DNA of 64,000 nucleotides, taken from assembly GCA_963737345.1 (NCBI GenBank), contig CAVTSM010000003.1, forward strand, positions 1,369,616-1,433,615. The letters are read 5' to 3'. The notes under the pieces were generated by a model. The model was not told the DNA's origin and made no database searches. It saw nothing but the letters and a program-made list of their open reading frames with translations. The DNA comes from an uncultured Pseudomonadota bacterium (GTDB lineage Bacteria > Myxococcota_A > Polyangia > Fen-1088). This document shows, one piece after another, positions 5,773 to 43,936 of this stretch; the stretch's first letter is position 1; each line of letters opens with the position of its first letter. The translations under genes were made by a program, and so were the position numbers.

Positions 5773-5830
5773 CAGCGGCCGATCGAGCGGATCTGAATCA
5801 TCAGGCAGCTCACAACGCAAGGAGACAGCC

Positions 5831-19913: not shown

Positions 19914-21971
19914 TTACCAGAGTTGGCAGAGGTCGGTCCTGCCGGTGGGCAGTGCGATTGCGGGAGCGGGTCCGGGGCAGCGGAATGCCTCCGCGAACTC
20001 GGGGACGTTCACGAGCGTTCCGTTGACACGAAACCGGCCTGGCGAGTGCGGATCGGTCATCACGAGCTCGCTCAGGTATTCGGGCCGGTCGTTCTCGCAG
20101 TAGAGCTGGGCGAACGACAGAAAGAACTGCTGGCGACTGTCGTACCCATCGCGTGAAGGCTCGTTGGGGTGCGCCGCGCCGAGTGCATCCAGCGCAAGGC
20201 GAACCCCGCCCAGATCGGCCGTGTTCTCGCCGAGCGTGAGCCGCCCATTGAGCTCCAACCCCGCGAGAGGCTGGTACCCAGCGAACTGATCCACCAGGCA
20301 CTGCGCGCGCGTCTGAAACCCAGCGGCCGTGTCGGGTGTCCACCAGTCGCGCAGGCGCCCCATTCCGTCGAGCGCGCGGCCACTGTCGTCGAACCCATGC
20401 GTGATCTCGTGCCCCATGACGGTACCGATGCCCCCGTAGTTCGACGCCGGCGAGTTGCCGGTCTTGAAGAACGGGAGCTGCAGGATCCCGGCCGGTATCT
20501 GCAGGCCGTTCGTCTGCAGGTAGCTGGCGTTCACCGTGATTGGCGCCATGTTCCAGGCGTGGCGATCGTACGGCTGGCCGAGCAACGCGATGCTCTGGCT
20601 ATACCCGAAGCTCCGGAGAGCGTTGTGATTCGCGAGGTAAGAGCCCGGATCGAAGGTGAGGCCGTCGTAGGCAGGCCACGCGTCCGGATAGGCGACCAGC
20701 TCGACGAGGTTGTCGAGCTTGGAAAGGGCCTCGGCGCGCGTCGAGTCGTCGAGCCAGCTCGCATCCATCAGGTGACGCGCCATCGACGCGCGTATCTCGC
20801 CGAGCAGCGCGGTCGCCTCGCTTCGAACCGCCGGCAACACGTACCGGCTGACGTAACGCTGCGACACCACCATACCGAGCGCGCCCAAGGTGGCATTGAG
20901 GCAGGTCCAATCGCGCGACGGAGCGCTCTCTACCCCGGTGAAGTCCTTCGCCCAGAACGCGAAGTCCGTGTCCAGAACCTGCTGATCCATCCACGGCGCC
21001 GTGTCCTGCACCAGCTGCCATTCGGCGTACGACTTCAGAGCCGCGATCGGCGTGGCGCTCCAAAGCGCGTCCAGCATCTTGAAGTAGGCGGGGTCTGCGA
21101 CGACGACTCTGGTGACCTCGCCCAGGCCGAGCGCCTGGAAATATCCCTCCCAGGGGAAGCTGGGCGCGAGCGCCTCGAGATCGCTCAGGGACATCGGGTT
21201 GTAGAGCGCGCGGCGATCGCGCAACTGGTCCGGCGCGCGGGCTGCCGTACCGAGCGCGGTCTCGACAGCCATCACCGCCGTGGGGTCTATGGGAGCCGGG
21301 GTCGCATAGAAGGCCGAGAGGTCCGCGATGTGCCGCTGGTAATCGGCGCGCATATCGGCGCGCGTCGGGTCCAGGTAGTCGTCCCGCTCGGGTAGCTCGA
21401 GGCCGCCCTGGCCCAGATGGATCGCCCATTGCGCGGGCATGCCCTCGTCGAAGCTGAAGCCCAGCGAGAACAAGGTGCCCGAGCCGAGGAGGCGTTGTCC
21501 GGCCAACGCCGTCGCGAGGTCGGCCAGCGACGTTGCTGATGCGATGGACTTCATCATCTTCTCGACGAGGGCGCGCGAGCCCATCTGCGTCGGGGCAACC
21601 AAGCAGCTCGCGTAGTAGGGTCCAATCATCCCGGGATTGGCATCGCCCGCGCCGCCTTTGCCAGCGGCTTCGTCTCGGATGATGCCCTGAAGCTTCGGCA
21701 CCATCGCGTAGAAGGCGTCGTCGAAGCGCCGTCGGTAGGCGCCGTCGGGCTGCAGCGGATTCGCGGCCAGCCACTTGCCGCAGGCATATTGGTAGAAGTC
21801 GTGGCAGGGGTCCGCGCCGGTGTCGATCGACATGAAGTCGATCCCGCTCGCCGGCGCCGGCGCCGGCGCCGGGGACGATGACGAGCAGGCGAAGGAGGGG
21901 AGCAGCGCGACGAAGGCGGCTGCTCGCGCTCGCGCGCCGACCTGGACATTCCGGCTCCGTTGCGCAGTCAC
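19914..21971 (-). CDS. pepO: M13 family zinc metallopeptidase (PepO/neprilysin-like) lipoprotein
   Basis: VMGHEITHGFDDSGR (HExxH), TVNASY, LGENTADLGG. Lipobox LLPSFACS. Confidence 0.9.
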   Translation of the reverse strand: MTAQRSRNVQVGARARAAAFVALLPSFACSSSSPAPAPAPASGIDFMSIDTGADPCHDFYQYACGKWLAANPLQPDGAYRRRFDDAFYAMVPKLQGIIRDEAAGKGGAGDANPGMIGPYYASCLVAPTQMGSRALVEKMMKSIASATSLADLATALAGQRLLGSGTLFSLGFSFDEGMPAQWAIHLGQGGLELPERDDYLDPTRADMRADYQRHIADLSAFYATPAPIDPTAVMAVETALGTAARAPDQLRDRRALYNPMSLSDLEALAPSFPWEGYFQALGLGEVTRVVVADPAYFKMLDALWSATPIAALKSYAEWQLVQDTAPWMDQQVLDTDFAFWAKDFTGVESAPSRDWTCLNATLGALGMVVSQRYVSRYVLPAVRSEATALLGEIRASMARHLMDASWLDDSTRAEALSKLDNLVELVAYPDAWPAYDGLTFDPGSYLANHNALRSFGYSQSIALLGQPYDRHAWNMAPITVNASYLQTNGLQIPAGILQLPFFKTGNSPASNYGGIGTVMGHEITHGFDDSGRALDGMGRLRDWWTPDTAAGFQTRAQCLVDQFAGYQPLAGLELNGRLTLGENTADLGGVRLALDALGAAHPNEPSRDGYDSRQQFFLSFAQLYCENDRPEYLSELVMTDPHSPGRFRVNGTLVNVPEFAEAFRCPGPAPAIALPTGRTDLCQLW

Positions 21972-22059: not shown

Positions 22060-22397
22060 GCGCCGCACCTGCTGGTGTCTCCGCCGCCCGGGGCCCTTGG
22101 GGCCGCCGCCCTCCTTTAGGGGTTCGTGCTCGACCGTGATGGTCGTGCGGGCCGGCGGAGATCAGACGCCCCTGCTGAACGCCTCGGTGGACGCCTCCGG
22201 ATCAGGAACCGAACGGACTGGACGCCAGATGCGTTCGCGAATACGCCGGCGTCGGCGACCAAATCTACGTTGATGCCGGGTTCACGAAGGGCAGTGCGCT
22301 CGAGCGAGTCGCCGAGAAGTCGTGTACGCCGGGTGAGTTCGTCGTTCGGTTCGACTCCGAGCGCAATCCGCAGAGTCTCGCACGCACGAAGCACTGA
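22060..22397 (+). pseudogene. decayed copy of the exported Cys-protein family (paralogue of 30506..31060)
   Basis: Positions 22197-22377 align without gaps to 30662-30842, with about 22 mismatches in 181 nt by hand. The segment translates to PDQEPNGLDARCVREYAGVGDQIYVDAGFTKGSALERVAEKSCTPGEFVVRFDSERNPQS. Upstream homology (LLNASVDA vs ILRAAIKA) is in another frame (extra C near 22195), with an in-frame TAG at 22117-22119. A premature stop at 22395-22397 removes the C-terminal ~75 aa. Confidence 0.6.
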
Positions 22398-22427: not shown

Positions 22428-24041
22428 TCACGCAGCCGCCCGGCCGACCCGGGCCAGTCTTTCCACGTCGGCGAGATACTCCGAGTAGCTCATGCGGAGA
22501 TCATAGGAGGTCTTGCCGGACAACTCGATGACCCGGGTGGCCAGCGACTCCACGAACTGCACGTCGTGGCAGGCGAAGATCATCGAGGCGTCACTCTTCA
22601 AGAGGCCATTGTTGAGCGCCGTGATCGATTCGAGATCGAGATGGTTGGTGGGCTGATTCAGCAGCAGGGTGTTCGGGTTCTTCAGCATCAGCTGGGAGAG
22701 CATGCAACGCACCCGTTCGCCTCCCGAAAGGACCTCGACCTTCTTGTGAACCTCGTCGGAGGTGAAGAGCATGCGACCGAGAAACGAGCGGATGGACGTC
22801 TCGTCCTTGGTGTCGGGCGCGTACTGGCGCAGCCACTCGAGGACGCTCTTGTCAGTGACGAAGTAGGTGTTGTTGTCCTTGGGAAAGTAGGCGACCTGAG
22901 TCGAGCGTCCCCAGGTGACGGTGCCGGCCTCGGGCTTGGATTCTCCGGCCAGGACCTCGAGGAGGGACGAAACCGCCCGGTCGTCGCCGACGAGCGCGAC
23001 GCGCTCGCCACGGCCGATCGAGAAGGTCAACCCGTCGAACAGCACCTCACCGCCGACGGTCTTGCGTAGGCCCTCCACGTTCACGACCTCCTTGCCGAGG
23101 GCGCGCTCCGCGTTGAACTGAATGAACGGGTACTTGCGAGACGACGGCCGGATGTCGTCCAGCGTGATCTTGTCGAGCAGCTTCTTTCGCGAGGAGGCCT
23201 GTCTCGATTTGGAGGCGTTGGCGCTGAACCGCCTGATGAACTCCTTCAGATCCTCGATCTGTTCAGACTTCTTCTTGTTCGAAGTCGATCGCTGCGTGAG
23301 CGCCATCTGGCTGGTCTCGTACCAGAAGGTGTAGTTCCCGGAGTAGAGCGTCACCTTGCCGAAATCGATGTCGGCGATGTGCGTACAGACTTTGTCCAGG
23401 AAATGCCGGTCGTGGGAGACGACCACCACGGTGTTCGGGAAGTCGAGCAGGAACTCCTCGAGCCAGAGGATCGAATCGACGTCCAGGTGGTTCGTGGGCT
23501 CGTCGAGGAGGAGGATGTCCGGATTGCCGAAAAGCGCCTGCGCCATGAGGACGCGGACCTTTTCGCTATCAGCCAGGTCCTTCATGAGCAAAGAGTGCTT
23601 GGCCGCCGGGACCCCCAGCTCACTCAGCAGCTTGGCAGCCTCGGCTTCAGCGTCCCAGCCGTTCAGGTCGACGAACGCAGCCTCCAGCTCACCGGCCCGC
23701 ACACCGTCGGCCTCACTGAAGTCGGCCTTCGCATACAGCGCGTCCTTCTCCACCATCAGCGCGTGCAGGACCTTGTGGCCCATGATGACGGCCGTCAGGG
23801 CCGGCACCTCGTTGAAGGCGAAGTGATCCTGGGAAAGCATGCTGAGCCGCTTGTTCGGCTCGATGCTCACCGAGCCGGAGGTCGACTGGATCTTGCCTGC
23901 CAGGCACTTCAGGAATGTCGACTTTCCGGCGCCGTTGGCGCCGATGAGCCCATAGCAGTTGCCGGGCGTGAACTTGACGTCCACGTCTTCGAACAAGGTC
24001 TGGCTGCCGAACGCGACGGAGAGGTTCTGAACGGTGATCAT
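22428..24041 (-). CDS. ABC-F family ATPase (two ABC domains, no TM domain)
   Basis: Two Walker A / signature sets (GANGAGKST ... LSGGE...), 537 aa, a YbiT/EttA-like ABC-F architecture. Confidence 0.9.
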   Translation of the reverse strand: MITVQNLSVAFGSQTLFEDVDVKFTPGNCYGLIGANGAGKSTFLKCLAGKIQSTSGSVSIEPNKRLSMLSQDHFAFNEVPALTAVIMGHKVLHALMVEKDALYAKADFSEADGVRAGELEAAFVDLNGWDAEAEAAKLLSELGVPAAKHSLLMKDLADSEKVRVLMAQALFGNPDILLLDEPTNHLDVDSILWLEEFLLDFPNTVVVVSHDRHFLDKVCTHIADIDFGKVTLYSGNYTFWYETSQMALTQRSTSNKKKSEQIEDLKEFIRRFSANASKSRQASSRKKLLDKITLDDIRPSSRKYPFIQFNAERALGKEVVNVEGLRKTVGGEVLFDGLTFSIGRGERVALVGDDRAVSSLLEVLAGESKPEAGTVTWGRSTQVAYFPKDNNTYFVTDKSVLEWLRQYAPDTKDETSIRSFLGRMLFTSDEVHKKVEVLSGGERVRCMLSQLMLKNPNTLLLNQPTNHLDLESITALNNGLLKSDASMIFACHDVQFVESLATRVIELSGKTSYDLRMSYSEYLADVERLARVGRAAA

Positions 24042-24482: not shown

Positions 24483-24914
24483 TCACGGAGTCTTCTGCGG
24501 AATCGTCTTGACTACCCACCGGTCCGCCTTGCGCTTGACGACTCCCTTCACCGGGCCGCATCCGGACGCCCGAGGAGCCCGTATGCGCCCCTTCGCGGAA
24601 TCGTCACGCCAGTTCGAATACAGCAGCTGCGCCCAACACTTTCTGGCTCCATGGCGCTCACGCTCGAACCCAAACTGGATGACGTACGTTGTTGGAGCCT
24701 TCGGGGGGCTTCGCCCGATTTGCACCACCCACCCATTCCCCTCGCACGTAACCGTTTGCACGGGCATCGGATCGAATCCGATCGCTTCAGCGTGCGTGAC
24801 TCCGCCGGCCGAGGCTGTCTCCTGGACACACTTCCTTTCCAGAGCCGTGTCGTCATCCGTCAATGGCCCGAGTATGCGCGTCGCGGTCTCGAGGACCATC
24901 GGACAGTAGTCCAC
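24483..24914 (-). CDS. exported Cys-protein family member (module copy 2, partner gene); start unresolved
   Basis: Shares DYC(P/E)M, (R/K)CV(Q/R)E and (T/S)C..G..VV motifs with 30506..31060. The frame stays open upstream of the first GTG (24912-24914) and encodes ...EKTVWILITLAIGLPGGGKTARTTN, which is signal-like. No ATG/GTG/TTG lies there, and that part overlaps the 3' end of 24953..25528. Confidence 0.5.
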   Translation of the reverse strand: MDYCPMVLETATRILGPLTDDDTALERKCVQETASAGGVTHAEAIGFDPMPVQTVTCEGNGWVVQIGRSPPKAPTTYVIQFGFERERHGARKCWAQLLYSNWRDDSAKGRIRAPRASGCGPVKGVVKRKADRWVVKTIPQKTP

Positions 24915-24952
24915 GTTGGTCGTACGCGCGGTCTTCCCCCCTCCCGGCAGGC

Positions 24953-25528
24953 CTATCGCGAGTGTGATGAGAATCCAGACCGTCTTTTCCCGCCGAGTGG
25001 GAACATCTTCTGCGGCACGATCGTGAAGTCGAGAAGCTTCATCGTCCGCATGTCGATTTCGACGTCATCGAAGATGCGACCGCGAAGAGTGCCGACCGTC
25101 ATTCCGGGAACCAGCGTCGCAATCAGGCCACCGATCGCAGAGCTGTTGCATCCCAGGATGTCAAAGCGCTGGACGCCGGAGTTCTTCAGGGCGTGGGCCA
25201 GTTGGGGCGCCGCGATTCTGTGAAGCGGGGCCAGCGTAACACCGTCGGACAGCGCGTGCCCGTAATAGACGAGGCGAGAGTATCGACGTGTCGCTAATGC
25301 AGCGCTGATGGTCCTCAGGTCGGGGACGAAATCGGCCTGCGCCAGGTCCGGCACCTCCGAACCGAAAGATTGCTGGAGGGATCGGCGGAACAGTCGTTCA
25401 AAGTTGGCGCGCGTTTCCCCCTTGAATTCCTTCGGATCAAGCTGCCACGTCTTGTGGAGATCGCGATGTGTAGCGCTGAACAGCTTGATCTTGTTGGGCG
25501 GTACGCCATACGCGACGAGCGTGGCCAT
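24953..25528 (-). CDS. small cytoplasmic protein with conserved YYGHA / ILGC motifs (module copy 2)
   Basis: 191 aa. Paralogue of 29960..30505: AYGVPP / IYGVPP; NFERLFRRSL / SFERALRTAL; RLVYYGHALSDG / QVVYYGHADQNA; RFDILGCNSS / HVDILGCKSV. No signal peptide. Confidence 0.6.
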   Translation of the reverse strand: MATLVAYGVPPNKIKLFSATHRDLHKTWQLDPKEFKGETRANFERLFRRSLQQSFGSEVPDLAQADFVPDLRTISAALATRRYSRLVYYGHALSDGVTLAPLHRIAAPQLAHALKNSGVQRFDILGCNSSAIGGLIATLVPGMTVGTLRGRIFDDVEIDMRTMKLLDFTIVPQKMFPLGGKRRSGFSSHSR

Positions 25529-25886: not shown

Positions 25887-25924
25887 GGTGTTATACGCTG
25901 TGATAAGCTTTGGCGTATAACACC
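25887..25924. promoter_or_regulatory. perfect 12-bp inverted repeat GGTGTTATACGC-N14-GCGTATAACACC abutting the ATG of the nucleotidyltransferase gene
   Basis: Arms at 25887-25898 and 25913-25924, with the ATG at 25925. Preceded by a C7 G11 homopolymer pair (25871-25888). Confidence 0.5.
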
Positions 25925-26959
25925 ATGGCCGCGCCCGACTTCGTCAAGCTCCCGCTCCTCGCGCAGACGGCGTACGCCCGCCTCCTCGACCTCCTCCTGA
26001 CGACCGAGATTGGGGATCCACTTGCCGGCGACTCCCTGGTTTCCAAGTCGATCCGCGGTCGCAGGTACTGGTACGCCCAGCGGCAAGAGGATGGCAGGAA
26101 GGTTCAGAACTACCTCGGGCCGGAGACTCCCGAGATCCTGGCGCTGCTCGAACGCTGGCGACGCGGAAAGACCGAGGCGTCCACGCGGGCAGAGCTGATT
26201 GCGATGGCGCGTGCCGGCGGTGCGCACGCGATCGGCGCCGCGGAGGCCAGCGTCATCGAACGGCTGGCTCCGGTCTTTCGAGTGGGCGGCGTACTCGTCG
26301 GCTCACATGCGTTCGTGGTTCTTGGCAACATGCTTGGCGTGCGGTGGCAAGAGGCTATCGTGCGAACCGAAGATGTCGACATCGCTCACGATCACACGAT
26401 CGCCGTAGCTCTGGCTCGCGGCGGCCCACGCGCGAATATCAAAGACGCGCTGGGCAATCCTATCCCGCGATTCTCGGCCCTCGACCCTGACGATCCTGCG
26501 ACCACGTTTCGCGTCCGGGGCACCGAGGTAGAGGTGGAGATCCTCACCCCGTTGGTTGGACGCGAGCGAGCGAGGACAATTTCGATCCCGACGTTGGGGA
26601 CCTCAGCGACGCCTTTGCGGTTCCTGGACTACCTCATCGAAGAGACACAACCCGGCGCCATCCTGGGCGGCACGGGCGCCCTGGTCAACGTCCCCCGACC
26701 CGGCCGCTTTGCGTTGCACAAGCTCATTGTGGCGGCGCGACGTGGAACCCGCACCGTCAGCATCACCAAGGCGGCCAAAGACCGTGCCCAATCCAGCGCG
26801 CTTCTGCAGGTCCTTCTCACGGAGTCGCCAGGGGAAATCACGCTCGCCTGGAAATCGCTCGCGCGCCGCGGACGTGCCTGGACCCAGGCTGCCTTAAGCT
26901 CGCTCGCCACCCTCCCCCCGACCATTACGACGGCGATCGAACAGTTGGGAGTCCGTTGA
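25925..26959 (+). CDS. nucleotidyltransferase-fold protein (GSU2403-like / AbiEii-like architecture)
   Basis: N-terminal ...SKSIRGRRYWYAQRQEDGRKVQNYLGPE... followed by a Pol-beta-type motif VGSHAF...(x17)...TEDVDIAHD (GS...DxD). The track ORF starts at TTG 25910, but ATG 25925 is more likely. Confidence 0.65.
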   Translation: MAAPDFVKLPLLAQTAYARLLDLLLTTEIGDPLAGDSLVSKSIRGRRYWYAQRQEDGRKVQNYLGPETPEILALLERWRRGKTEASTRAELIAMARAGGAHAIGAAEASVIERLAPVFRVGGVLVGSHAFVVLGNMLGVRWQEAIVRTEDVDIAHDHTIAVALARGGPRANIKDALGNPIPRFSALDPDDPATTFRVRGTEVEVEILTPLVGRERARTISIPTLGTSATPLRFLDYLIEETQPGAILGGTGALVNVPRPGRFALHKLIVAARRGTRTVSITKAAKDRAQSSALLQVLLTESPGEITLAWKSLARRGRAWTQAALSSLATLPPTITTAIEQLGVR

Positions 26960-27959: not shown

Positions 27960-28825
27960 CTATCGGCATGCCGGGGTTCCAGGGTAATCGCCGCTGCCCA
28001 TCATCTTCCACCACTGACGGATCGAAGCGACGGCGAATTGGGGAGTGTCGTGGTCGCGGCCGACGTTCACCCATGCCTCATTGCGGGCCATGTCGTAGAC
28101 GCCGTACGGGATCGCCTTGCCGATCGCATCGCCCGGGAAATCGTGCACCAGTGCCTCTTCGGGCGTGGCCCGCGGTTGCCATTCCCGCCCGGCGTTTTTG
28201 AAATCACCGACCAGTTCCTTCTTTTTCGTGTCGACGGAGATCACCGGCTGCTTCCGGCGCAGGAACGACGTGGTGGTCGCGTTGATGTGCTCGAACTGTT
28301 CGTTGCGGTCTGGATGCGAGTCCCCTTCGCGGGTCTTGCGCACCGATTGCAGGCTGTATCCGAGTTCGTGGAGCAGACGTCCGACCGTCGTGGAGCTCAC
28401 ACGCCATCCGTCGTTCGCCAGCGTCGACGCGAGCTTCGCTCTGCTCTTGCAGGTCCATCGAAGCGGCGACATGGGGTCGCCACGGGTGAGCGGATCGACC
28501 AGCTGCTCGAGCGCCTGTTTCACTCCCGGGTTCGTCTTCTCGATGCCCGGGCGTCCCGCACCGACTCGGCGCACCCGTGTCGTGGCCTCGACTCCGCCTT
28601 CGATCTCGCGGCGGCCGCTCCGGATCGTTACCCGCGAAATCCCTGTCGCCGCAGAAACAACGGAGTCACCTCCGTACCCGATGGATCTCGACTCCGCCGC
28701 CGCCCACAGACGACGCGCACGCTCGTTGAGAACCGGCGCGACCACCGCGTACTTCGCCACGATGGCCGCTTCCAACTCTTCGTCTCGGCTCACAACCGCA
28801 GGAGATCACGCTTCCTTGCGATTGA
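27960..28825 (-). mobile_element. truncated ISAzo13-family IS; the transposase retains only the N-terminal 277 aa
   Basis: ORF 27960..28793: ...LNERARRLWAAAESRSIGYGG...PLRWTCKS...HPDRNEQFEHIN...PVISVDTKKKELVGDFKNAGREW...AIPYGVYD...IRQWWKMMG..YPG, then a stop. The canonical continuation (LLITADGGGSN... DDE core) is missing. Confidence 0.8.
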
Positions 28826-29293
28826 ATAGTTAATTTACGCGCGCCGCCTAAGTGTCGCCGCCCGGATTGTGGCCACCGAGAGGAGGCGGCCGACGGAGAC
28901 CTGCGTCGCTGCCCCAAGTGCAACTTCAAACTCTGGCCGATCGGCCAGGTGCCGCCCATCCGGTTCCACGACACGCGCCACACCACTGCGTCGCTGCTGA
29001 TGATGTTCGGCGCCAGCCCGATCGCGGTGCAGCGGATCCTCCGCCACTCCGACGTCCGCACCACGACCGACGTCTACAGCCACCTCGCTCCTGACTACCT
29101 GCGGGCGGAGATCAACAAGCTGTCGTTCCGGCCGAAGCCGCAGCCGGAGACCCTCACCCTGGCCCTCTCCTGCGGCGCGGCGCAGCGGGAGAGGGGATCA
29201 AAGGGCACCGGAGGCGGATGGATTTACTTCACCGGTACTTCAGAGCGAGAAAGAGGCGGGTTCGGCGGTTCCCCCCCCCCTCCGAATCCGTGA
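28826..29293 (+). pseudogene. tyrosine recombinase (integrase) C-terminal fragment
   Basis: The frame opens just after a stop at 28823-28825. It encodes a CxxC...CxxC insert and then IRFHDTRHTTASLLMMFGASPIAVQRILRHSDVRTTTDVYSHL (box II with the catalytic Tyr). The N-terminal two thirds are absent. Ends 20 nt before the att repeat. Contains a C10 tract at 29271-29280. Confidence 0.8.
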
Positions 29294-29312: not shown

Positions 29313-29358
29313 TCGGTCGGGGCGAGAGGATTCGAACCTCCGACATTCTGCTCCCAAA
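29313..29358 (-). repeat. 46-bp direct repeat = 3' half of tRNA-Pro (anticodon loop to 3' end + 4 nt); internal att site
   Basis: Identical to 34728-34773: TCGGTCGGGGCGAGAGGATTCGAACCTCCGACATTCTGCTCCCAAA. The flanking bases differ on both sides. Confidence 0.9.
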
Positions 29359-29384: not shown

Positions 29385-29837
29385 ATGAAGGCGTCGCAAC
29401 CATCGGAGATGATTACAGAGTCGGATCCGCCCGGAGTCCAGCCGTCCCAGCCGGTAGCAGGAAGTACCAAGGATTTTGTTACCCGGTTGCTACCCGAATC
29501 TGGAAAGGCGTGGCCGCGGGCGCGGGTGCAGCCCGCCGAGGTCCACCCTGGGTGGCCCAACAACCCCGGGACGGCGGCGCCTGGCCCGACCACCCCCACC
29601 CCGAACGACCTCGGGGTTCTGTACGGCGGACGTAACCGGCTGCTCACGGTCAGGGAGGTCGCGGCCCAGCTCGGCGTGTGCACCGCGACCGTGTACCGCC
29701 TCTGCGAAATCGGCGAACTGCCGCATGTCCGGATTTCCGATGCGATCCGCGTGAGGCCCGCGGACCTGGAGGCGCTCGTGGCGTCCACCCTGACCGTCCC
29801 CGACAGGAAGCGTCCGCATCGACGGAAGGCCCCATGA
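29385..29837 (+). CDS. excisionase-family/MerR-like HTH DNA-binding protein (only the C-terminal ~60 aa are recognisable)
   Basis: LLTVREVAAQLGVCTATVYRLCEIGELPHVRISDAIRVRPADLEALV. The true start is uncertain (alternative GTG at 29526). Confidence 0.55.
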   Translation: MKASQPSEMITESDPPGVQPSQPVAGSTKDFVTRLLPESGKAWPRARVQPAEVHPGWPNNPGTAAPGPTTPTPNDLGVLYGGRNRLLTVREVAAQLGVCTATVYRLCEIGELPHVRISDAIRVRPADLEALVASTLTVPDRKRPHRRKAP

Positions 29838-29959
29838 GTCCCCCTGCGAATCGCCAAATTCATGTAGCAAGAGCGCCCGCAACTATCTAGCCTGGCCGCC
29901 GATAGTTCACCATGGCAGCGGGGTGTGCGAATGGCGATGTCTCGGAGGAGGGCTGAAAC

Positions 29960-30505
29960 GTGAGCGACGTGTCAGTGCTTTGCATCTATGGCGTGCCTCC
30001 GACAATGAGGCTGAAAACTGCTGGCGGACAGAGCACCGGCCAGACGTTCACCCTGACGAGCACGAACAAGGGGTCTTTCGAGCGGGCGCTCCGAACTGCA
30101 CTCGACGCCTTCGTCGGCAGCGACGCCAGCATCATGGGCGCTCGGTTCGCCTTCGTGCGCAACATCTCCGAGATTTCTACGGCGATTCGCTCCGGCGCCT
30201 ACACACAGGTCGTCTACTACGGTCACGCCGATCAAAATGCGAATGCGCTGATCACCTCCCATGGAGTGAGGATCACCCCGGCACAGCTGGCGTCGGCTCT
30301 GCAAGGGACTAGTGTTGCGCACGTCGACATCTTGGGCTGCAAGAGCGTCAGTTTCGCGGGGGAGCTTGCGACACTCGCACCAAAGTTGCGGGTGGGCTAC
30401 CTAACAGCGAAGAGATTCGACAACATCGAGGTCAATCTCCACACCCAGCAGGTCATCGATGTCGCGATCGATCGTCAGCCGCTGCTTCACTTCGGGCCGA
30501 AGTAG
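29960..30505 (+). CDS. small cytoplasmic protein with conserved YYGHA / ILGC motifs (module copy 1)
   Basis: GTG start with GGAGGAGGG 8 nt upstream. 181 aa, no signal peptide. His89 in VVYYGHAD and Cys127 in VDILGCKS, each following a hydrophobic strand-like run. Confidence 0.65.
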   Translation: MSDVSVLCIYGVPPTMRLKTAGGQSTGQTFTLTSTNKGSFERALRTALDAFVGSDASIMGARFAFVRNISEISTAIRSGAYTQVVYYGHADQNANALITSHGVRITPAQLASALQGTSVAHVDILGCKSVSFAGELATLAPKLRVGYLTAKRFDNIEVNLHTQQVIDVAIDRQPLLHFGPK

Positions 30506-31060
30506 ATGGGGGCGGTTCGCCAGGTTTGGTGCGTGCTTGGGGTCGCTGTCGCGCTCACCTCCTGCGCCCACCGTCATGGACGGGAGCGGCGCTCCGGGAA
30601 TCCGGTGACGTCGGACTATTGCGAGATGTCGGCGACGATTCTGCGGGCTGCGATCAAGGCTCCGGATCAGGAACCGAACGGACTCGACGCCCGGTGCGTT
30701 CGCGAATACGCCGGGGTTGGCGACCAGGTTTACGTTGATGCCCGGTTCACGAAGGGCGGTATGCTGGAGAGGGTTGCTGACAAGTCGTGTACGACGGGTG
30801 AGTTCGTGGTTCGGTTCGACTCGGAGCGCAATCCCCAGAGTCCCGCACCGGGAGTCATCTTCTTGAGCGTCGATGAACCAACGCCGACCGGCCGGCCTTT
30901 TTTCATCACCGTCGAGGAATCGCGATGGGCCAAGCGGCCCTCCAACGTCCTTGCGATGCCACCTTGCGATCCGGCCTTTGGCATCCTGAATGGCCGTACT
31001 GAAAGCACCGGCTGGACAGCCAAGGTTGTTCCGCCGCCTCGCGGACCTGACGACCTGTAG
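30506..31060 (+). CDS. lipoprotein of unknown function (module copy 1, partner gene)
   Basis: The ATG directly abuts the upstream TAG (30503-30505). Lipobox GVAVALTSC. Further conserved Cys in DYCEM, ARCVRE, KSCTTG, PPCDP. Confidence 0.65.
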   Translation: MGAVRQVWCVLGVAVALTSCAHRHGRERRSGNPVTSDYCEMSATILRAAIKAPDQEPNGLDARCVREYAGVGDQVYVDARFTKGGMLERVADKSCTTGEFVVRFDSERNPQSPAPGVIFLSVDEPTPTGRPFFITVEESRWAKRPSNVLAMPPCDPAFGILNGRTESTGWTAKVVPPPRGPDDL

Positions 31061-31067
31061 AGGTTGT

Positions 31068-32768
31068 TCACCGGGCCAGTCGAACACCGATTCCGACTGG
31101 AGGAGGGATGACTTCGCTGAAGCCGGAGCGGTCTTCGGAAATCCATGCCACGTCCGAACGATCGAGATCCCGGTTGAACTCGTAGTGCACCGCGAGCGGC
31201 CGGCCAGCCTCGTCGACTTTCAGGACGGCTGCTCTGAGAGTCGCGGTTTCAACGACATCACCAACCCTGAACGGACTGGTTCGAACGATTCCGTTCCGTC
31301 CAAGTGGAAAAAGCGGTGTGCTCTCCTGGACGACGTCGAGCGAGGTCGCGGATGTGCGGATGGCCGCGGTCTGTTCGAATGTGTGGCTCAGGACCAGCCA
31401 GTGCTTTGGCGCGTCCTCGCGTAAGACGAAGGGCGCAGAGAGGGCTGTCAACCCCTGAGTGGCACGGACGACCAAGGCCGTGTCGGCTGCGCGAGCGCGC
31501 TGCGGCACGGTCGCAAACCGCGCGAGGCTTTGCCTCGCTTCCTCGACGTTATCGACCGAGATTCGGCGCGTCTGGAATGGAGCGACGACGAGATGGATGA
31601 GTGTCGCCAGCGCCGCCACGCCGAGCACCAGCGAAGCGCGAAACGGCCGGCGAATCTGGCGCGTCCCCTGCTCAACCAGCACACCGACTACGCCGCTTAT
31701 GCCGAGCGCGGCGATGCCAAGAACGCGAAGTGCAGGCTCGGTCGCCGCGAGCGGGAACAGCGCGATGACGGAGCCGCAGGCGAGCCATGAGATGGGTAGC
31801 GGCAAGACCCCAGACGTTTGTCGACGGGCCGTCCAGACAGTCCGTATCACCAGAACACCGGCACCGAAGATCAACGCCGCTCCAACGGCTTCGGATGCGG
31901 GCAACCGCGCAGTCACGCCAGGGCCGAGCCAGGCCGACGCCAGCAGGGCAGAAACCGTCCCGGGAAGCGCATGCAAGAAGGTCCCAAGATCGGTTGTCGG
32001 ATCGCGATAGAAGCCTGTTCCTGCGGTGCCGTACCCGAGCGCGCCAGAGGTAGAGCAACAGCGGTCCCATTGCCGGCAGCGCACCGACGAGACGGCGCCG
32101 TACGGTCTCTCCGCGATGGCACAACTCGAAGGCGATCAGGTACCCAATCAGGCACAAGGCGTATTCGCCTGTCAGAGCGGCTGCACCGAACGCGCCGGCG
32201 GTCGCCAGTCCCAGGCCGCGACCCCGCTCAGCCCGCCAGCGCACGTAGAGCGCGAGTGCCAACGCGCCGAAGGTCACACTCACGAGGATGCTGCGGTTCG
32301 CCAGCCACACGACCGGTATGGCGAGAGTCGGAGAGACGGCGAACACAACCGTGGCGATCCATGCCGCGCGCTTTCCAACGACGGTCCGGTAGAGAACGTG
32401 AGCGGCGAGCACCGCTGCCGCCCACCACAGGAACGACAGTACGTGCGGCCCAAAGGGCTCATTGCCGAACAGCCGATGGTCGACCCAGATGAGCAGGCTG
32501 GGCAGCGGCCGCAGGAATCGGATCGTCAGGTTAGGCTCGGACCACCAGGGGATCACGCCGCGATCCAGAAGTGCTGACCGATTGTCGTCCGCGATGAGAT
32601 CGTAGAGGTGAAAGGCCCCCGTGGTGGCGTCAGCGTCCCCTCGATCATCGCCCGCTGCCCGAAATCGTCCATGCCGAACGTTGCATGCATGGCAGCACGG
32701 TTCAGGGCTCCCCCTGCCGCCAGGGTGCCGACAAGCACCACGCCCGCGATCCACGACCGACGCGTCAT
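31068..32768 (-). pseudogene. polytopic membrane protein interrupted by two frameshifts
   Basis: Three overlapping track ORFs (32553..32768, 31672..32829, 31068..32084) join into one sensible protein. The joins are ...TLTPPRG/AFHLYDLIADD... (at a G5 run near 32617-32621) and ...GPLLLYL/..GALGYGTAGTGFY... (near 32045-32060). Confidence 0.55.
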
Positions 32769-32777
32769 GTTCCGCCG

Positions 32778-33920
32778 TTACGGCGGAAGGAACCGGCCAA
32801 TTTTTCCCGCCTGCTGTTCCGTGAACCACAGATTTCCATCCGGCCCGCGCGCGATCCCATAGGGGCTTGCGGGCACGGGAAATTCGGTCACCTGGCCGGA
32901 GCTATTGATGCGACCAAGACTCGATGCTGATTGTTCCGTGAACCAGACGTTCATATCGGCACCGAGGGCCAGCGTGTAGGGATAGGCGTTCGGGGTCGGG
33001 ACGTTGAACTCGGAAACCGTTCCTGTCGTCGTGACTCGGCCGATCTTGTTGGCGTTTGCTTCCGTGAACCACAGTGCGCCGTCCCCGCCCACGATGATGT
33101 TGACGAGGTTGGGGTCAGGTGTCGGGACGCCGAATTCCGTGACCGTTCCTGCCGCCGTCATACGCGCAATCGAGACGCTCTCCACGAACCAGAGGTTGCC
33201 GTCTGGCCCCTGCGTGATCCCCTCAGGCGATGCGTTCGACGTCGGCAGCGGCTTGTAGGATATCGCTCCAGCAGGTGTCGAGATTCCGATGTGATTTTGA
33301 GTCGCGTCGGTGAACCAGATGTTACCACCCGGCCCCGCCGTGATCCCGCTGGGTATCGCGAGACCTCCGGTCGAGGCCGCGTATTCGGCCACCACACCGC
33401 TGGGAGTGATCCGTCCGATGTTCCCGATGCTCTCTTCGACGAACCAGAGATTGCCGTCCGGGCCTGGCGCCATCCTTCCCAAGCCGCTGGCCTGCGACAG
33501 GACCTGAAACTCAGTGATGGAACCGGTGGTGCTGATTCGGCGAACCTTGTCGTAGGCGCTGTCCGTGAACCAAAGATTTCCGTCTCCTCCGGCCGCGATG
33601 TATCGAGGCTTGGCGCCGATGTCCTGCAGGGCGAACTCCGTCACCCTGCTCCGGCACGTGGCGTTGTCGCAGTAGGCGCTGGCCGAGCAACCAGGCGTGC
33701 AGGTGACGCCGCTGCCTGCAGTTCCCCCCGACGATCCCACTGCACCAGCCGCCCCGTTCCCCCCAGCAGCGCCGCCTACGCCCGCCGCGCCACCTCCGCT
33801 TCCGCCGCGCCCACCAGATCCGCCTGTCGCGTCGGTCGTGGACGCACCAGCGCCCGCGGCACCGCCGGAGCCCTGAATTCCCGCATTTCCACCAGTCGAG
33901 GCGTGAGTGTCACCGCCCAT
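32778..33920 (-). CDS. Vgb (streptogramin lyase)-like beta-propeller repeat protein; the N-terminus is probably truncated
   Basis: Repeated GPDGNLWFTE..(x)..IGRIT..G.(V/I)TEF units. Gly/Ser/Thr-rich N-terminal linker. The frame upstream of the ATG reads GAQLLIIAPA preceded by TGA, so no complete signal peptide is present. Confidence 0.7.
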   Translation of the reverse strand: MGGDTHASTGGNAGIQGSGGAAGAGASTTDATGGSGGRGGSGGGAAGVGGAAGGNGAAGAVGSSGGTAGSGVTCTPGCSASAYCDNATCRSRVTEFALQDIGAKPRYIAAGGDGNLWFTDSAYDKVRRISTTGSITEFQVLSQASGLGRMAPGPDGNLWFVEESIGNIGRITPSGVVAEYAASTGGLAIPSGITAGPGGNIWFTDATQNHIGISTPAGAISYKPLPTSNASPEGITQGPDGNLWFVESVSIARMTAAGTVTEFGVPTPDPNLVNIIVGGDGALWFTEANANKIGRVTTTGTVSEFNVPTPNAYPYTLALGADMNVWFTEQSASSLGRINSSGQVTEFPVPASPYGIARGPDGNLWFTEQQAGKIGRFLPP

Positions 33921-34083
33921 AGCGGGCGCGATGATAAGCAGTTGCGCCCCTCAGTCGCAATCGGAGCGAGGATAACCTGGCCCAGCACGGTTTGGCCCAC
34001 CTGACAGTTGCGGCCAAGCAAGCGCGAAAGGTCGAGCTTCACGTCAGTAGCCTTTCGACGGCACGTCACCGGCTTCAGTGCAG

Positions 34084-34727: not shown

Positions 34728-34773
34728 TCGGTCGGGGCGAGAGGATTCGAACCTCCGACATTCTGCTCCCAAA
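34728..34773 (-). repeat. 46-bp att repeat copy within and just beyond the 3' half of the intact tRNA-Pro
   Basis: Identical to 29313-29358. Confidence 0.9.
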
Positions 34774-34805
34774 GCAGACGCGCTACCAGGCTGCGCCACG
34801 CCCCG
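34732..34805 (-). tRNA. tRNA-Pro (anticodon UGG)
   Basis: The 74-nt cloverleaf folds by hand: acceptor CGGGGCG/CGCCCCG, D stem GCGC/GCGC, anticodon stem TCTGC/GCAGA with loop TTTGGGA, variable loop ATGTC, T arm GGAGG-TTCGAAT-CCTCT, discriminator A. CCA is not encoded. Confidence 0.9.
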
Positions 34806-40141: not shown

Positions 40142-40759
40142 ATGACCGACAGCTGGGACCGGCCGCCACCCGACATCACCCCCGCCGATCTTTTCGAGCG
40201 GTGGTTGCCGCAGGCGTTCGCCGCGGCCGGCTGGCGTGCCCCCGCGGGCATCCCGCGGTTGCGTGTGAGCGTCGCGGGCACCACCGGCGGACCGTGGGAC
40301 CTGTCCGTCGCGGGGGAGACGTTGACCGTGGCGACCGGCAGCCGCGAGGCACCGGACATCTGGATGCGCCTGTCCCTGCCGGACTTGCGCGCCGTTCTGG
40401 GCGTCGAAGATCCCGACCTGCCGCCGATTGCGCCGCCCGGCTGGTCGATGCGCGACCTTCTGATCGTCCAGCCCGCCGACGTCGATCTGGTGCGGCAGAT
40501 TTCCGGCCGCGTTGCCGTGGAGATCGAAGGCCGCCGCCGGCGACGCTGGACGCTGGACGTCGGCTTCGGCGCGGCCGGCGTCAGCGCGGGGCGCCCGCGC
40601 ACGACCCTGCGGCTGGACGCACCGACCTTCGAGGGGCTGCGCAGCGGCGCCTTGCCGCCGATGCAGCCCCTGCTCGACGGACGCCTCAAGATCGAGGGCG
40701 ACCGGGCGCTGGCGATGCAGCTGCTACTGCTGATCGGCAGCCGGCTGAGCCGGCGCTGA
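40142..40759 (+). CDS. SCP2 sterol-carrier-like domain protein
   Basis: C-terminal ...LRSGALPPMQPLLDGRLKIEGDRALAMQLLLLIG is an SCP2 pattern. The 3' end overlaps the convergent kinase gene by 36 nt. Confidence 0.6.
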   Translation: MTDSWDRPPPDITPADLFERWLPQAFAAAGWRAPAGIPRLRVSVAGTTGGPWDLSVAGETLTVATGSREAPDIWMRLSLPDLRAVLGVEDPDLPPIAPPGWSMRDLLIVQPADVDLVRQISGRVAVEIEGRRRRRWTLDVGFGAAGVSAGRPRTTLRLDAPTFEGLRSGALPPMQPLLDGRLKIEGDRALAMQLLLLIGSRLSRR

Positions 40760-43700
40760 CGGCGACGCCTCCGCCGCTTCGTGGGGCCGCTTGCCCGAAC
40801 TGCGCGCGGGCGGCTCCCGGGTGGGGGCTTCCTTCGACGGCTCGGGCTCGCTCTTGTCTTCGGGCTGCTTGGCCGTGGCGGGCTCTGGCGGTTTTGCCTC
40901 GACGGGCGCCTCCGCCGGGGCTTTCGCCTCGGGGGCCGACGCGGCGCCGGGCTGGGCCGAATCGTCGGGTGGCGTTTGCTCGGACTCTGCCGCCGGCTCC
41001 GCCGGGGGTACGGCCGCATGTGACGGGGCGGCGGGCGACTCGGTTGATGGCGCCCTTTGGGCCGTGGCGGCCCGATTGATCGCGCGCCTGCGCGCCCCCG
41101 CCGGCGGCGTCGAAGCGGCCATCGCGTGGCGGACCTGCTGCAAATCGCGGGTCAGCACCGGATCGTCCGGCCGTATGACCAGCGCCTTTTGGTACTCGCT
41201 CGCGGCCGCCGGGTAGTCGCGGGCACCGGCCAGGCTTTCCGCGACCAGGGCGTGCGCCGACGGATCCGCGGGGGTCAGCGTCAGCGCCTCCCGCGCCCAG
41301 CGAATCGCTTCCGCCGGCTTCTGCGCGGTCAGCGCCGACTGCGCGCGCGTCCTCAGTGCCGCCGCCACCTCCGCCTCGCCGCCGGCGTGCGCGTCCAGCG
41401 CCAGCGCCACCCGATAGTGCGCCACCCCATCGTCGATCTGGCCGCGATCCAGCTCTGCCTCGGCCTTTTGCACCAGCTGCTGCTTCGCACGCACCGACAG
41501 CCGGTCGGCGATTGCACCACCACCGTCGGCCCGCAAGCTCGCCAGGTGCTCTTTCAACGCCGGGACGTCCGCGAAGCCGAACTTGTCGGCCAGCATCGAC
41601 TCGACCTCGGCGACGCCCAGCCGCAGGCGTTCGGCACGCCGTTCGAGATCGCTGTTCCGCGCGGGCACCGCGGCTGCCGGCGCGGTGGCGGAATCTTCCT
41701 CGGCGTCGCGCGCGGCCGTGCTCCAGGGCAGCCGCCGGTAGATCGGCACGGCGACGGCGGCGGCCACACCCAGAACGGCCAGCGCCCCGGCCCACTTTCG
41801 CGCCGGCGGCCGCACCGGCGGGGCTTGGGGCGACATCGTGCGCGCCCGGCTCCGGGGCCGCTCTTCGCTCCATCCAGGCGACACCGCCGATGGCCCTTCC
41901 GTCGGGTAGTCGATCGCCGGCGGCCCTTGCACCGGCTGCTGCGCCGGCTCCTGTGCGTCGGACTGGGCCACCGCGTCCAGCACCAGCGGCGTTCCGCGCG
42001 ACTCGGGGTCGCGCAACCCGAGCAGCTCGGCCACCGCGCGCGGGCGGCCGAACAGCGACTTCACGAGGTCGTACTCGAGCTGGCCCATCGACTGGTACCG
42101 GCGCTCGGGGTCGGGCTCCAGCGCGCGCATGATGATGCGGTCCAGCTCCTCGGGAACGTCGGCCTTCACGCCGCGCGGCGAAATCAGATCTTTGTCGCGA
42201 TTGAGCTGGGGCGGCGAACCGGAGACCATCTCGTAGATCAGCGCGCCCACCGAGTAGATGTCGGTTCGGTGGTCGACGGCGCCGCCCTCCGCCTGCTCGG
42301 GGGCCATGTATTCCGGCGTCCCCATTGCGACGCCCGGGTTGGTCAGTCGCCGCGCCCGCCCCATGCTGCGCGCGATGCCGAAGTCCAGCACCTTCACGAA
42401 ATCGGCCTGGCCGTCGCGGGCGACCAAGAAGATGTTCTCGGGCTTGAGATCGCGGTGAATGACGCCCGCCGCGTGCGCCGCCGCCAGCGCCCGGCAGATC
42501 TGGATCGCGATGTTGCACGAGCGCGAGGCGTCCAGCCGCCGCTCGTGCGAAAGCACGTCGGCCAGATCGATGCCGTCGAGGTGCTCCATCACGAAGTAGG
42601 CGCAGCCGTCCTCGGTCGAGCCGAAGTCCGTGACGTCCACGATGTTGGGATGACCGATGCGCGAGGCGGCCCGCGCTTCCCGCCGGAAGCGCTCGACCAG
42701 ATCCTGCTGGGTCGAATAGGCCGGGTGCAGGATCTTGATGGCGACGCCCTTGCCGATCTCGACGTGCTCGGCGGCGTAGACGGTGCCCATGCCGCCCTCG
42801 CCGATCTTGCGAATGACGCGGTATCGGTTGTTGATGACCCGACCGGTGAAGTTCAGCCCCAGCGACTCGTCGTCTTCCTTCGGGAATTGCAGCCTGGTGC
42901 TGGACTGCTCCAGCGTGGCGAGTGACACCGCCATCGTTTTGGACGTCCGCCCGTTCGCCGGCACGAACAACGGAGCCGCCGACGCCAACAGCTGATCTCT
43001 GTCGACGCGCTCTTCCTTCATCTGCTGGTCGTAGAGGCTGCGCAGGAACTCGGCCGCGCGCTCGGCGTCCGCCCGCGGCGAGATCTGCGTGATGATCTCC
43101 GACAGCGCCTTGCGCAGCTCCTCGGCGGACTGAAACCGGTTTTCGCGGGCCGGGGCCAGCGCCTTCAGCAACAGCGCGTCCAAGTTCGGCGTGATCCAGG
43201 GCGCCTTCGACGAGGCCGGTTGTACGCGCGGGTGGCGCACCAGCGACATCGCGGTCGCGGCATCCAGATTCGCCAGCTGCAGGTACTGGTTGCCCGTGAC
43301 CAGCTCCCACAGGACGACGCCCAGGCTGTAGATGTCGCTGCGCGCGTCGGCCGGCTCACCGCGCGCCTGCTCGGGCGACAGATAAGAGGCGCGGCCGAAC
43401 ACCACCCCCGGCGCGGTGTTCTCTTGCTTCAGCACACTGCGCGCCAGCCCGAAGTCCGTCAGCTTCACCTCGCCGAAGTAGCTGAGCAATATGTTGGGGG
43501 GCGCGACGTCCCGGTGCACGAGGCGCAGATCCGCATGGCTGTGGACGTAGGCCAGCGCGCGCGCGATCTCGCGGCCGATGTGCAGGGCGACGTCCAGGGG
43601 GATGCGCGTGCGGGTCCGCACGCAGCGGTTCCAGATCTCGCGCAGGTCCTTGCCTTCGACCAACTCCATGGCGATGAAGAACTCGCCGTCCACCTCGCCC

Positions 43701-43936
43701 GCGTCCAGCGTCGGGACCAGGTTGGCGTGGGACAGCCGAAGCACGACCTTGGCTTCGTCCAGGAACCGGTTGGCCTTCGTGTGGTCGGTCTTCTCGGCGA
43801 TGACCTTCTTCACCACGCAAAACTTTTGGAAGCCGATCTCACCAGCCGCAGCAAGGTAGATCGCCCCCATGCCGCCGCGCGCCAGCGGCTTCAGGAGCAC
43901 GTACTTTCCAAATTTGAGAGGAAACGTTTCGGCCAT
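40724..43936 (-). CDS. dual-kinase-domain Hanks-type Ser/Thr kinase with TM segment and TPR-like C-terminus
   Basis: Domain 1: LARGGMGAIY, CVVKKV, HRDVAPPN, DFGLA, SPEQ. Domain 2: GEGGMGTVY, VAIKIL, HRDLKPEN, DFGIA, APEQ. TM WAGALAVLGVAAAVAVPIY. TPR-like repeats at the end. Confidence 0.9.
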   Translation of the reverse strand: MAETFPLKFGKYVLLKPLARGGMGAIYLAAAGEIGFQKFCVVKKVIAEKTDHTKANRFLDEAKVVLRLSHANLVPTLDAGEVDGEFFIAMELVEGKDLREIWNRCVRTRTRIPLDVALHIGREIARALAYVHSHADLRLVHRDVAPPNILLSYFGEVKLTDFGLARSVLKQENTAPGVVFGRASYLSPEQARGEPADARSDIYSLGVVLWELVTGNQYLQLANLDAATAMSLVRHPRVQPASSKAPWITPNLDALLLKALAPARENRFQSAEELRKALSEIITQISPRADAERAAEFLRSLYDQQMKEERVDRDQLLASAAPLFVPANGRTSKTMAVSLATLEQSSTRLQFPKEDDESLGLNFTGRVINNRYRVIRKIGEGGMGTVYAAEHVEIGKGVAIKILHPAYSTQQDLVERFRREARAASRIGHPNIVDVTDFGSTEDGCAYFVMEHLDGIDLADVLSHERRLDASRSCNIAIQICRALAAAHAAGVIHRDLKPENIFLVARDGQADFVKVLDFGIARSMGRARRLTNPGVAMGTPEYMAPEQAEGGAVDHRTDIYSVGALIYEMVSGSPPQLNRDKDLISPRGVKADVPEELDRIIMRALEPDPERRYQSMGQLEYDLVKSLFGRPRAVAELLGLRDPESRGTPLVLDAVAQSDAQEPAQQPVQGPPAIDYPTEGPSAVSPGWSEERPRSRARTMSPQAPPVRPPARKWAGALAVLGVAAAVAVPIYRRLPWSTAARDAEEDSATAPAAAVPARNSDLERRAERLRLGVAEVESMLADKFGFADVPALKEHLASLRADGGGAIADRLSVRAKQQLVQKAEAELDRGQIDDGVAHYRVALALDAHAGGEAEVAAALRTRAQSALTAQKPAEAIRWAREALTLTPADPSAHALVAESLAGARDYPAAASEYQKALVIRPDDPVLTRDLQQVRHAMAASTPPAGARRRAINRAATAQRAPSTESPAAPSHAAVPPAEPAAESEQTPPDDSAQPGAASAPEAKAPAEAPVEAKPPEPATAKQPEDKSEPEPSKEAPTREPPARSSGKRPHEAAEASPSAPAQPAADQQ

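Follow-up and report, generated by a model that had tools for sequence, protein, structure and literature searches.

What do two abutting genes without any described family do on a small genomic island of an uncultured member of the Polyangia? The genes, here called A and B, occupy positions 29960 to 31060 of a 64,000-nucleotide stretch of contig CAVTSM010000003.1 (GenBank assembly GCA_963737345.1, forward-strand positions 1,369,616 to 1,433,615), which is referred to below as the window. A preliminary description, made from the sequence alone, had presented them as an uncharacterised two-gene module of the conflict or defence type. We consider it rather probable that the pair is a free-standing toxin-immunity cassette, with a caspase-fold cysteine peptidase (A) as the toxin and a lipoprotein (B) as the immunity protein. 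Neither protein has a family match in Pfam, NCBIfam or PADLOC or a sequence match in the PDB, and the products of a second pair in the window, A2 and B2, have no match in Pfam, NCBIfam or PADLOC; neither the A nor the B family is catalogued so far. The coordinates of the features are given in Table 1.

Gene A is read from a GTG start codon at 29960 to a TAG stop codon at 30503-30505. The open reading frame (ORF) and its upstream sequence agree with what had been described for this gene, namely the GTG start, a strong Shine-Dalgarno element and a product of 181 amino acids (aa) without a signal peptide; the translated 181-aa ORF contains no N-terminal hydrophobic segment. Promoters and terminators were searched for around the A-B pair and none were found. 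An atypical codon choice had also been noted; the G+C content over A and B is lower than in the flanking core genes (approximately 0.62 compared to 0.67-0.70), but the deviation is only mild.

The AlphaFold2 model of A (predicted local distance difference test score (pLDDT) 88.8, predicted template modelling score (pTM) 0.85) consists of strands that alternate with helices. The motifs VVYYGHAD and VDILGCKS, which had been proposed to end strand-like runs, do so in the model, where they terminate the strands formed by residues 83-87 and 121-125, and the His and Cys residues that they contain are 38 residues apart. When the model was compared with the PDB by Foldseek, the top match was the SAVED-CHAT structure 8tl0 (E = 1.4e-3, probability 1.0, template modelling (TM) score 0.48 on the query), accompanied by the cysteine protease domain (CPD) of the Vibrio MARTX toxin (3gcd, E = 3e-3; 3fzy, E = 2.8e-2), to which the TM-scores are low (0.25-0.28), and by separase (5fc2, E = 1.3e-2). 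In the viral structure library BFVD, the best named matches were mostly labelled caspase, C14, caspase-like, clostripain or metacaspase. With E-values from 1e-3 to 5e-2 and TM-scores of 0.25-0.51, these matches place A in clan CD at the level of the fold class only.

Conservation of the two candidate catalytic residues was determined among 94 domain hits, 73 of which were informative. His89 was retained in 70 and Cys127 in 71 of these 73 sequences, and both are the sole invariant columns in a diverse alignment of 25 sequences (A3) with identities down to 22%. The conservation of both residues among homologues, which the preliminary description had proposed to check, was confirmed. As in clan CD peptidases, the His precedes the Cys, each ends a strand and both are strictly conserved; in the predicted peptidase, Cys127 would be the nucleophile, with His89 as its general base. 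One relative of 175 aa, P0032, has a Tyr in place of the conserved Cys (DILGYEG) with the remainder well conserved, and may be an inactive form.

Searched singly against Pfam at E-values up to 10, 25 family members gave isolated noise only; one CHAT match had E = 0.15. A distant subgroup of A relatives matched CHAT (P0080, E = 3.3e-4), Peptidase_C50 (0.03), Raptor_N (0.035), Peptidase_C80 (0.083) and Peptidase_C25 (0.086), all short of the curated cut-offs, and alongside these clan CD matches there were four weaker ones to unrelated families. Alignment of the subgroup to the A family with hhalign (probability 99.3%, E = 2e-20) superimposed GH on GH and GC on GC, which makes the homology between this subgroup and A secure. 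A caspase-like clan CD fold is therefore supported for the modelled A protein by evidence that is consistent but statistically modest, and the His/Cys dyad suggested in the preliminary description draws on the AlphaFold2 and Foldseek results, the weak Pfam matches in distant relatives and the conservation of the dyad itself.

A word-seeded search of 5.8 billion protein clusters yielded 9 A relatives and 16 B relatives, none of them named; one adjacent A-B pair among them stems from a Polyangia metagenome-assembled genome (MAG). An exhaustive HMMER search of 1.84 billion representatives recovered 83 relatives of A, including stand-alone proteins of 175-200 aa. The named hosts of A and B relatives are MAGs of Polyangia, Myxococcales and 'delta proteobacterium', and the remainder come mostly from soil and rhizosphere metagenomes. 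In three giant proteins the A domain is located at the extreme C-terminus, namely in P0051 (3026 aa, domain at residues 2855-3007), P0065 (2655 aa) and P0071 (2833 aa), all of which combine SpvB, TcdB_toxin_midN, FG-GAP and RHS repeats in the layout of a fused Tc-toxin B-C component. The domain directly follows the RHS core and DPxG-type junction motifs in P0088, P0077, P0067, P0098 and P0105, P0085 is likewise an RHS-fused A-domain protein, and in P0099 the domain is preceded by a Tox-PAAR-like type VI secretion domain (E = 1.6e-23). Judged by this C-terminal place in RHS/Tc and PAAR-like toxins, the A domain is a toxin payload domain: its homologues form the last domain of delivery toxins, while the window copy itself is free-standing. 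This link to RHS and PAAR toxins was absent from the preliminary description. The RHS-A fusion P0088 is immediately followed, at 2088-2342 of locus L003, by another RHS fragment with a lipoprotein signal (LLAISC), which is not immunity-like. Seven relatives of 242-268 aa (P0080, P0093, P0097, P0100, P0101, P0103 and P0106) start with a PGPLG-type motif that resembles the end of an RHS core; the P0080-type subgroup has a conserved C-terminal extension (…RPRERGDP…), and these proteins look like orphan RHS C-terminal cassettes.

The association of A with B was determined by locus scans that were seeded with the closer alignment A1 and are thus biased to stand-alone pairs of the Polyangia type. 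A B homologue directly followed A in 19 of 19 loci that were found through A and had enough downstream DNA, and an A homologue lay directly upstream of B in every locus found through B; the pair had been described as a two-gene module, and every related locus with enough sequence does pair the two genes. At nearly all junctions, the stop codon abuts the start codon or overlaps it as ATGA, and translation of B would be coupled to that of A. Across 13 loci, the pairwise identities of A and of B were correlated (Spearman 0.89; the pairs are not independent), and B was the more diverged protein in 95% of the pairs, with a mean identity of 39% compared to 52% for A. Ratios of nonsynonymous to synonymous substitution rates (dN/dS) of 0.02-0.31 for both genes indicate purifying selection. 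Both the position of B and its co-divergence with A are those of an immunity gene downstream of its toxin gene, and from them we infer the immunity function itself.

A frameshifted A gene was found beside an intact B gene in five lineages assembled from short reads (L002/L005/L009, L014, L017, L018 and L027/L028). Such a pattern of decay is common where the immunity gene survives for longer than the toxin gene. In the 'contig_N' ENA assemblies (L001 and L031), frameshifts were left uncounted, as indel errors of long reads are suspected there; the B gene of L001 contains two compensating indels that suggest an assembly error. Between L004 and L026, A is 98% and B 85% identical, and between L024 and L026 the values are 95% and 100%; this mismatched divergence suggests recombination inside the cassette, as far as can be read from these sequences.

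The giant relatives have the SpvB-TcdB-RHS layout of the BC components of insecticidal Tc toxins, the MARTX CPD is among the best fold matches of A, and the scanned genes of the window include no bacterial delivery genes near A. These observations would suit a toxin directed against eukaryotes such as amoebae or nematodes, either as a Tc payload or as a protease of the inositol hexakisphosphate (InsP6)-activated MARTX type, with B as an unrelated envelope factor or helper. We regard such a role as very improbable. The strict linkage, translational coupling and co-divergence of A and B point to a specific protein-protein relationship, the giant relatives are followed by small, tightly spaced or overlapping ORFs (197-225 aa; 197 and 210 aa after P0051 and P0065, respectively), as immunity genes would be, and the TM-scores to the CPD are low. 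The CPDs of MARTX and TcdA/TcdB (Peptidase_C80, clan CD) do resemble A in size and in their G-H and G-C motifs, which end strands. However, they are internal, InsP6-activated, self-cleaving and eukaryote-directed, whereas A is terminal or free-standing and has a predicted immunity partner; neither a significant sequence match nor a Peptidase_C80 match in Pfam was obtained for A, and we do not assign it to C80.

The claims made for the second gene all held: the TAG of A abuts the ATG of B, the predicted signal peptide ends in a lipobox (ALTSC), and four further Cys residues are conserved, which proved invariant in the family. In all 25 full-length B members a Cys ends the N-terminal hydrophobic segment; the strict lipobox pattern is present in 21 of them, and the other four have LFGC or WLC at the same place, as judged by eye. 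The residues C39, C64, C95, C154, W141 and W170 are invariant across the family, and the four conserved Cys and two Trp residues fit a disulfide-bonded periplasmic protein. Export of B would use the Sec pathway, with lipidation at Cys20, and two disulfides would probably stabilise the protein. Its mature part was modelled with a pLDDT of >90 over most of its length, and no fold in the PDB matched this model (best TolB, E = 0.11, probability 0.16). Gasdermin and known inhibitor folds were considered for B and rejected, as no PDB fold matched. A broad B profile recovered only 29 proteins, all of 99-191 aa. B does not belong to Imm36 (BH3703-like), as it lacks any Pfam match and is an exported lipoprotein. 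A B-like gene also occurs beside a delivery toxin: the PAAR-like-A fusion in L022 is followed, at 998-1675, by a gene for a Cys-rich lipoprotein with all six invariant B residues (four Cys, two Trp). After an RHS-A fusion in L023, a DUF3455 protein with a Sec signal is encoded at 6203-6772.

The SitA toxins of Myxococcus belong to the lipoproteins, as does B, which is polymorphic and located on mobile DNA. The family is confined to MAGs of Polyangia and other Myxococcota and to soil metagenomes, a setting in which the roles could be reversed, with B as a SitA-like toxin that is passed on by outer-membrane exchange and A as the cytoplasmic immunity protein. It is the domain of A, however, and not that of B, that forms the C-terminal end of RHS and PAAR toxins. 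Furthermore, A has the invariant His and Cys typical of an enzyme while the invariant residues of B are only structural Cys and Trp, the gene order of a signal-less enzyme followed by a faster-evolving partner is that of toxin and immunity protein, and B matches no toxin domain. A reversal of roles is very improbable indeed.

The top PDB match of A, the CHAT protease of SAVED-CHAT, brings up anti-phage defence by abortive infection. A would then be a caspase-like effector protease that is switched on by infection, and B its partner or substrate that acts on the membrane, as in protease-gasdermin or SAVED-CHAT systems. In addition to this structural match, the islands contain genes of the toxin-antitoxin or defence type (PIN, HicB, Zeta toxin, DarT-Macro and helicases), and the helix-turn-helix (HTH) protein encoded upstream of A weakly resembles Mad1 of the MADS system. 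We nevertheless consider a defence function improbable. None of A, B, A2 and B2 matched PADLOC-DB at E-values up to 0.01. The CHAT proteases of defence systems, which include the best structural match of A and have a weak Pfam match in P0080, possess a sensor domain and work intracellularly on a partner protease, whereas A is a bare catalytic domain without any sensor or regulatory domain and its partner is exported: with its Sec/lipoprotein signal and four Cys, B lies outside the cytoplasm, beyond the reach of a cytoplasmic A. The B model matches neither a gasdermin nor any other PDB fold, and the A domain is the terminal payload of RHS and PAAR toxins. Of the 'conflict or defence module' in the preliminary description, the first half is thus the likelier, as an interbacterial conflict between toxin and immunity protein; defence finds no support in a PADLOC match or a sensor domain.

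Among known systems, a toxin-immunity cassette of this kind comes closest to Tox-Caspase, a caspase-like domain that ends RHS polymorphic toxins, contains a conserved H and C, and is probably the toxin itself (Zhang, de Souza, Anantharaman, Iyer and Aravind 2012, PMC3482391). A shares with it the caspase-like alpha/beta domain, the order of His and Cys, the predicted role as peptidase toxin and the small immunity gene downstream, and its homologues terminate RHS-repeat toxins, TcdB/TcaC-type and type VI-linked ones among them. In contrast to Tox-Caspase, the window A stands alone, has a ribosome-binding site of its own and escapes every Pfam model, and where the partner of Tox-Caspase is the cytoplasmic, BH3703-like Imm36, B is an unrelated lipoprotein with four Cys. 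The pair is best classed with the predicted Tox-Caspase toxin-immunity type, as an uncatalogued variant whose exported lipoprotein partner is unusual. Literature searches retrieved no experimentally studied caspase-like RHS, Tox-Caspase or type VI secretion toxin.

The organisation of the pair has a close counterpart in the Tae/Tai pairs of type VI secretion amidases and their immunity proteins, such as Tse1-Tsi1, in which a Cys/His effector of about 150-180 aa without a signal peptide is harmless in the producer's cytoplasm and a periplasmic immunity protein is encoded directly downstream. A and B show this effector-immunity layout, with a small signal-less Cys/His protein and an exported partner downstream. 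They differ from Tae/Tai in that Tae proteins have a papain-like NlpC/P60 fold in which the Cys precedes the His, while A has the clan CD layout with the His before the Cys; in addition, there are no type VI genes near A in the window, and the substrate of A need not be peptidoglycan.

The window contains a second, divergent pair, A2-B2, on the opposite strand, in which A2 has kept the His and the Cys. At the A2/B2 junction (24983-24986), the window reads AAGA where metagenome contig L019 reads ATGA, with the A2 stop overlapping the B2 start. AAGA removes both the A2 stop and the B2 start, making A2 10 codons longer (191 aa compared to 183 aa in L019, which has a small indel). A2 is 99% identical to its L019 orthologue at the protein level with a dN/dS of 0.02. 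Contig L019 and the window share just the 1.25-kb A2-B2 cassette (93% DNA identity), and their surroundings differ. Beside the cassette, at 25910-26959, lies a gene whose 349-aa product contains an NTP_transf_8 nucleotidyltransferase domain (E = 2e-43); this gene may be the 'toxin-antitoxin' gene of the preliminary description. A 189-bp remnant of a B gene (residues 53-114) is flanked by genes for an M13 peptidase (19914-21971) and an ABC-F ATPase (22428-24041), where no island can be recognised. The second copy and decayed third copy that had been reported for the window therefore exist, but they did not arise by the duplication that had been assumed, as A2 and B2 are divergent alleles (34-36% and 20-23% identical to A and B, respectively).

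How the parts of such a toxin-immunity pair would work together can be outlined as follows, and we infer toxicity of A, neutralisation by B, an envelope target and a delivery route alike. A would cut a protein or peptide substrate in the envelope of the target cell while being harmless in the producer's cytoplasm, and B would neutralise A-type toxins. The location of immunity proteins mirrors the site of toxin action, and only one of the immunity families surveyed consisted of lipoproteins (Zhang et al. 2012, PMC3482391). Export of B makes the cell envelope the likeliest site of action of the toxin, and we put action of A in the periplasm or envelope of a target cell at a little less than an even chance. 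Delivery of A as a cargo effector of type VI secretion is the route that first comes to mind, but a doubtful one; no vgrG, hcp, paar or type VI cluster was present near the pair in L002, L024, L029, L030 and L031.

Several findings weigh against a toxin-immunity cassette with a caspase-fold toxin. Every fold match of A is marginal (E = 1e-3 or worse) and was obtained with a predicted model; A has no Pfam match at E-values up to 1, clan CD families included; and family profiles run against PDB sequences hit no clan CD chain (two chance-level matches for A3, none for A5). The window A, as its sequence reads, is neither fused to a delivery domain nor equipped with a signal, and no RHS, VgrG, PAAR or other secretion gene was detected among the large ORFs and island-neighbouring genes scanned in the 64-kb window. 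Imm36, the known immunity family of Tox-Caspase, is cytoplasmic and in this respect unlike B (Zhang et al. 2012, PMC3482391). The downstream gene was checked for two fused relatives, only one of which is B-like, and the match of this L022 gene to B was weak before it entered the profile (E = 3e-4 against six sequences). Finally, B2 in the window lacks a start codon while A2 looks intact. Such an arrangement fits a toxin-immunity pair only if A2 is harmless in its own cell or silent; harmlessness of A in the producer's cytoplasm would explain why A2 is tolerated.

If the toxin-immunity reading is right, the pair would provide a compact caspase-fold enzyme of 181 aa that comes with its own protein inhibitor, a probable new envelope target in interbacterial killing together with a new lipoprotein immunity family, and a case of soil myxobacteria trading toxin-immunity cassettes on very small integrative islands. 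Its strongest form is that A is the first envelope-acting clan CD interbacterial toxin, blocked by a new disulfide-bonded lipoprotein inhibitor without a fold relative, and spread as the main cargo (in one related strain the only one) of miniature tRNA-Pro islands that swap divergent alleles among soil Polyangia; taken as a whole, this is speculative and rather unlikely. For annotation, two families of 'hypothetical protein' would become nameable and relatives at RHS C-termini recognisable.

Table 1. Positions, in the window, of the A-B pair, its relatives and the elements of the surrounding island.
Feature	Position	Strand	Description
B-gene remnant	22195-22383	+	residues 53-114; 189 bp; 88% DNA identity to 30660-30848; 89% protein identity
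B2	24483-24914	-	20-23% identical to B; start codon lost; span including A2/B2 junction 24483-24986
A2	24953-25528	-	191 aa; divergent allele, 34-36% identical to A; His and Cys kept; tblastn E = 2.5e-28
Truncated ISAzo13-type transposase	27960-28793		left of att repeat
Tyrosine recombinase C-terminal remnant	28949-29293	+	left of att; Pfam Phage_integrase E = 1.9e-7, profile positions 126-169 of 172 only
Left attachment (att) repeat	29313-29358	+	46 bp; exact copy of the 3' part of tRNA-Pro; identical to 34728-34773
HTH_17/excisionase-type gene	29385-29837	+	Pfam HTH_17 E = 2.2e-12; TIGR01764 E = 1.8e-8
Shine-Dalgarno element	29944-29952	+	GGAGGAGGG; 7-nt spacer to GTG of gene A; read from sequence
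Gene A	29960-30505	+	181 aa, stand-alone; predicted toxin with caspase-fold (clan CD-like) cysteine peptidase domain
His89 codon	30224-30226	+	predicted catalytic His; motif VVYYGHAD (YYGHA); C-terminal end of strand 83-87
Cys127 codon	30338-30340	+	predicted nucleophile; motif VDILGCKS (ILGC); C-terminal end of strand 121-125
Gene B	30506-31060	+	184-aa lipoprotein; predicted periplasmic immunity protein; ATG at 30506 abuts TAG of A
B signal peptide and lipobox	30506-30565	+	MGAVRQVWCVLGVAVALTS-C20, ending ...VALTSC (lipobox LTSC)
tRNA-Pro(tgg)	34730-34805	-	ARAGORN; right att repeat at 34728-34773

The island proposed in the preliminary description, bounded by att sites and next to an excisionase-like gene, was recovered through the 46-bp repeat, the tRNA-Pro gene and the HTH_17/TIGR01764 matches. 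The att 46-mer is also present in L001, L019 and L030. In the related strain L001, the same order of att, HTH gene, A and B is found at tRNA-Pro, with 97% identity over the island and 87% over the flanking core. Window positions 31244-33953 are missing from L001, the island of which is little more than the HTH gene, A and B. Encoded on this 2.7-kb segment of the window are a predicted membrane protein of 338 aa, a membrane glycosyltransferase resembling PMT_2, and a beta-propeller of the Vgb_lyase family whose N-terminus is rich in Gly. Of the 338-aa ORF, only a 61-residue remnant is left in L001. Only the window, L001, L013 and L030 have the HTH_17 gene immediately upstream of A; in L027 the two genes are divergently oriented. 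A place for it as a third gene of the module was considered and rejected, as it adjoins A in no more than the window clade and a few further loci. Neighbours of A-B in other loci are insertion sequence elements, PIN, HicB, Zeta toxin, DarT-Macro and an integrase. Two tandem HTH_17-A-B cassettes, guessed for L030 from ORF lengths, were rejected when hidden Markov model searches showed one A-B pair. At 5969-7009 of L030, a second HTH_17 gene precedes two small ORFs (122 and 160 aa), neither of which is a homologue of A or B; the 160-aa ORF starts like a lipoprotein and could belong to an unrelated or damaged cassette, and the assembly may contain indel errors.

Different A-B alleles occur near the same att site in different strains, and the pair would be the cargo of a small tRNA-Pro-integrated island with several divergent alleles. 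This observation, together with the L001 island, which consists essentially of the HTH gene, A and B only, would also be expected if the pair served addiction or some other function, stabilising the small tRNA-Pro island rather than attacking other cells. However, a periplasmic antidote cannot neutralise a cytoplasmic toxin of the same cell, and because A is often frameshifted and B2 has lost its start codon beside an intact A2, either gene can evidently be lost without cell death. We therefore hold an addiction function to be highly improbable.

Paralogous genes were also observed elsewhere in the window. Tandem paralogues at 3871-5772 and 5723-7615 encode proteins of approximately 630 aa with PKD domains and RTX calcium-binding repeats, and share about 80% DNA identity over 215 bp. 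Two large paralogues at 40724-43936 and 45901-48936 each encode two Ser/Thr kinase domains followed by C-terminal TPR repeats, and a multihaem cytochrome gene (44027-45862) is located between them.

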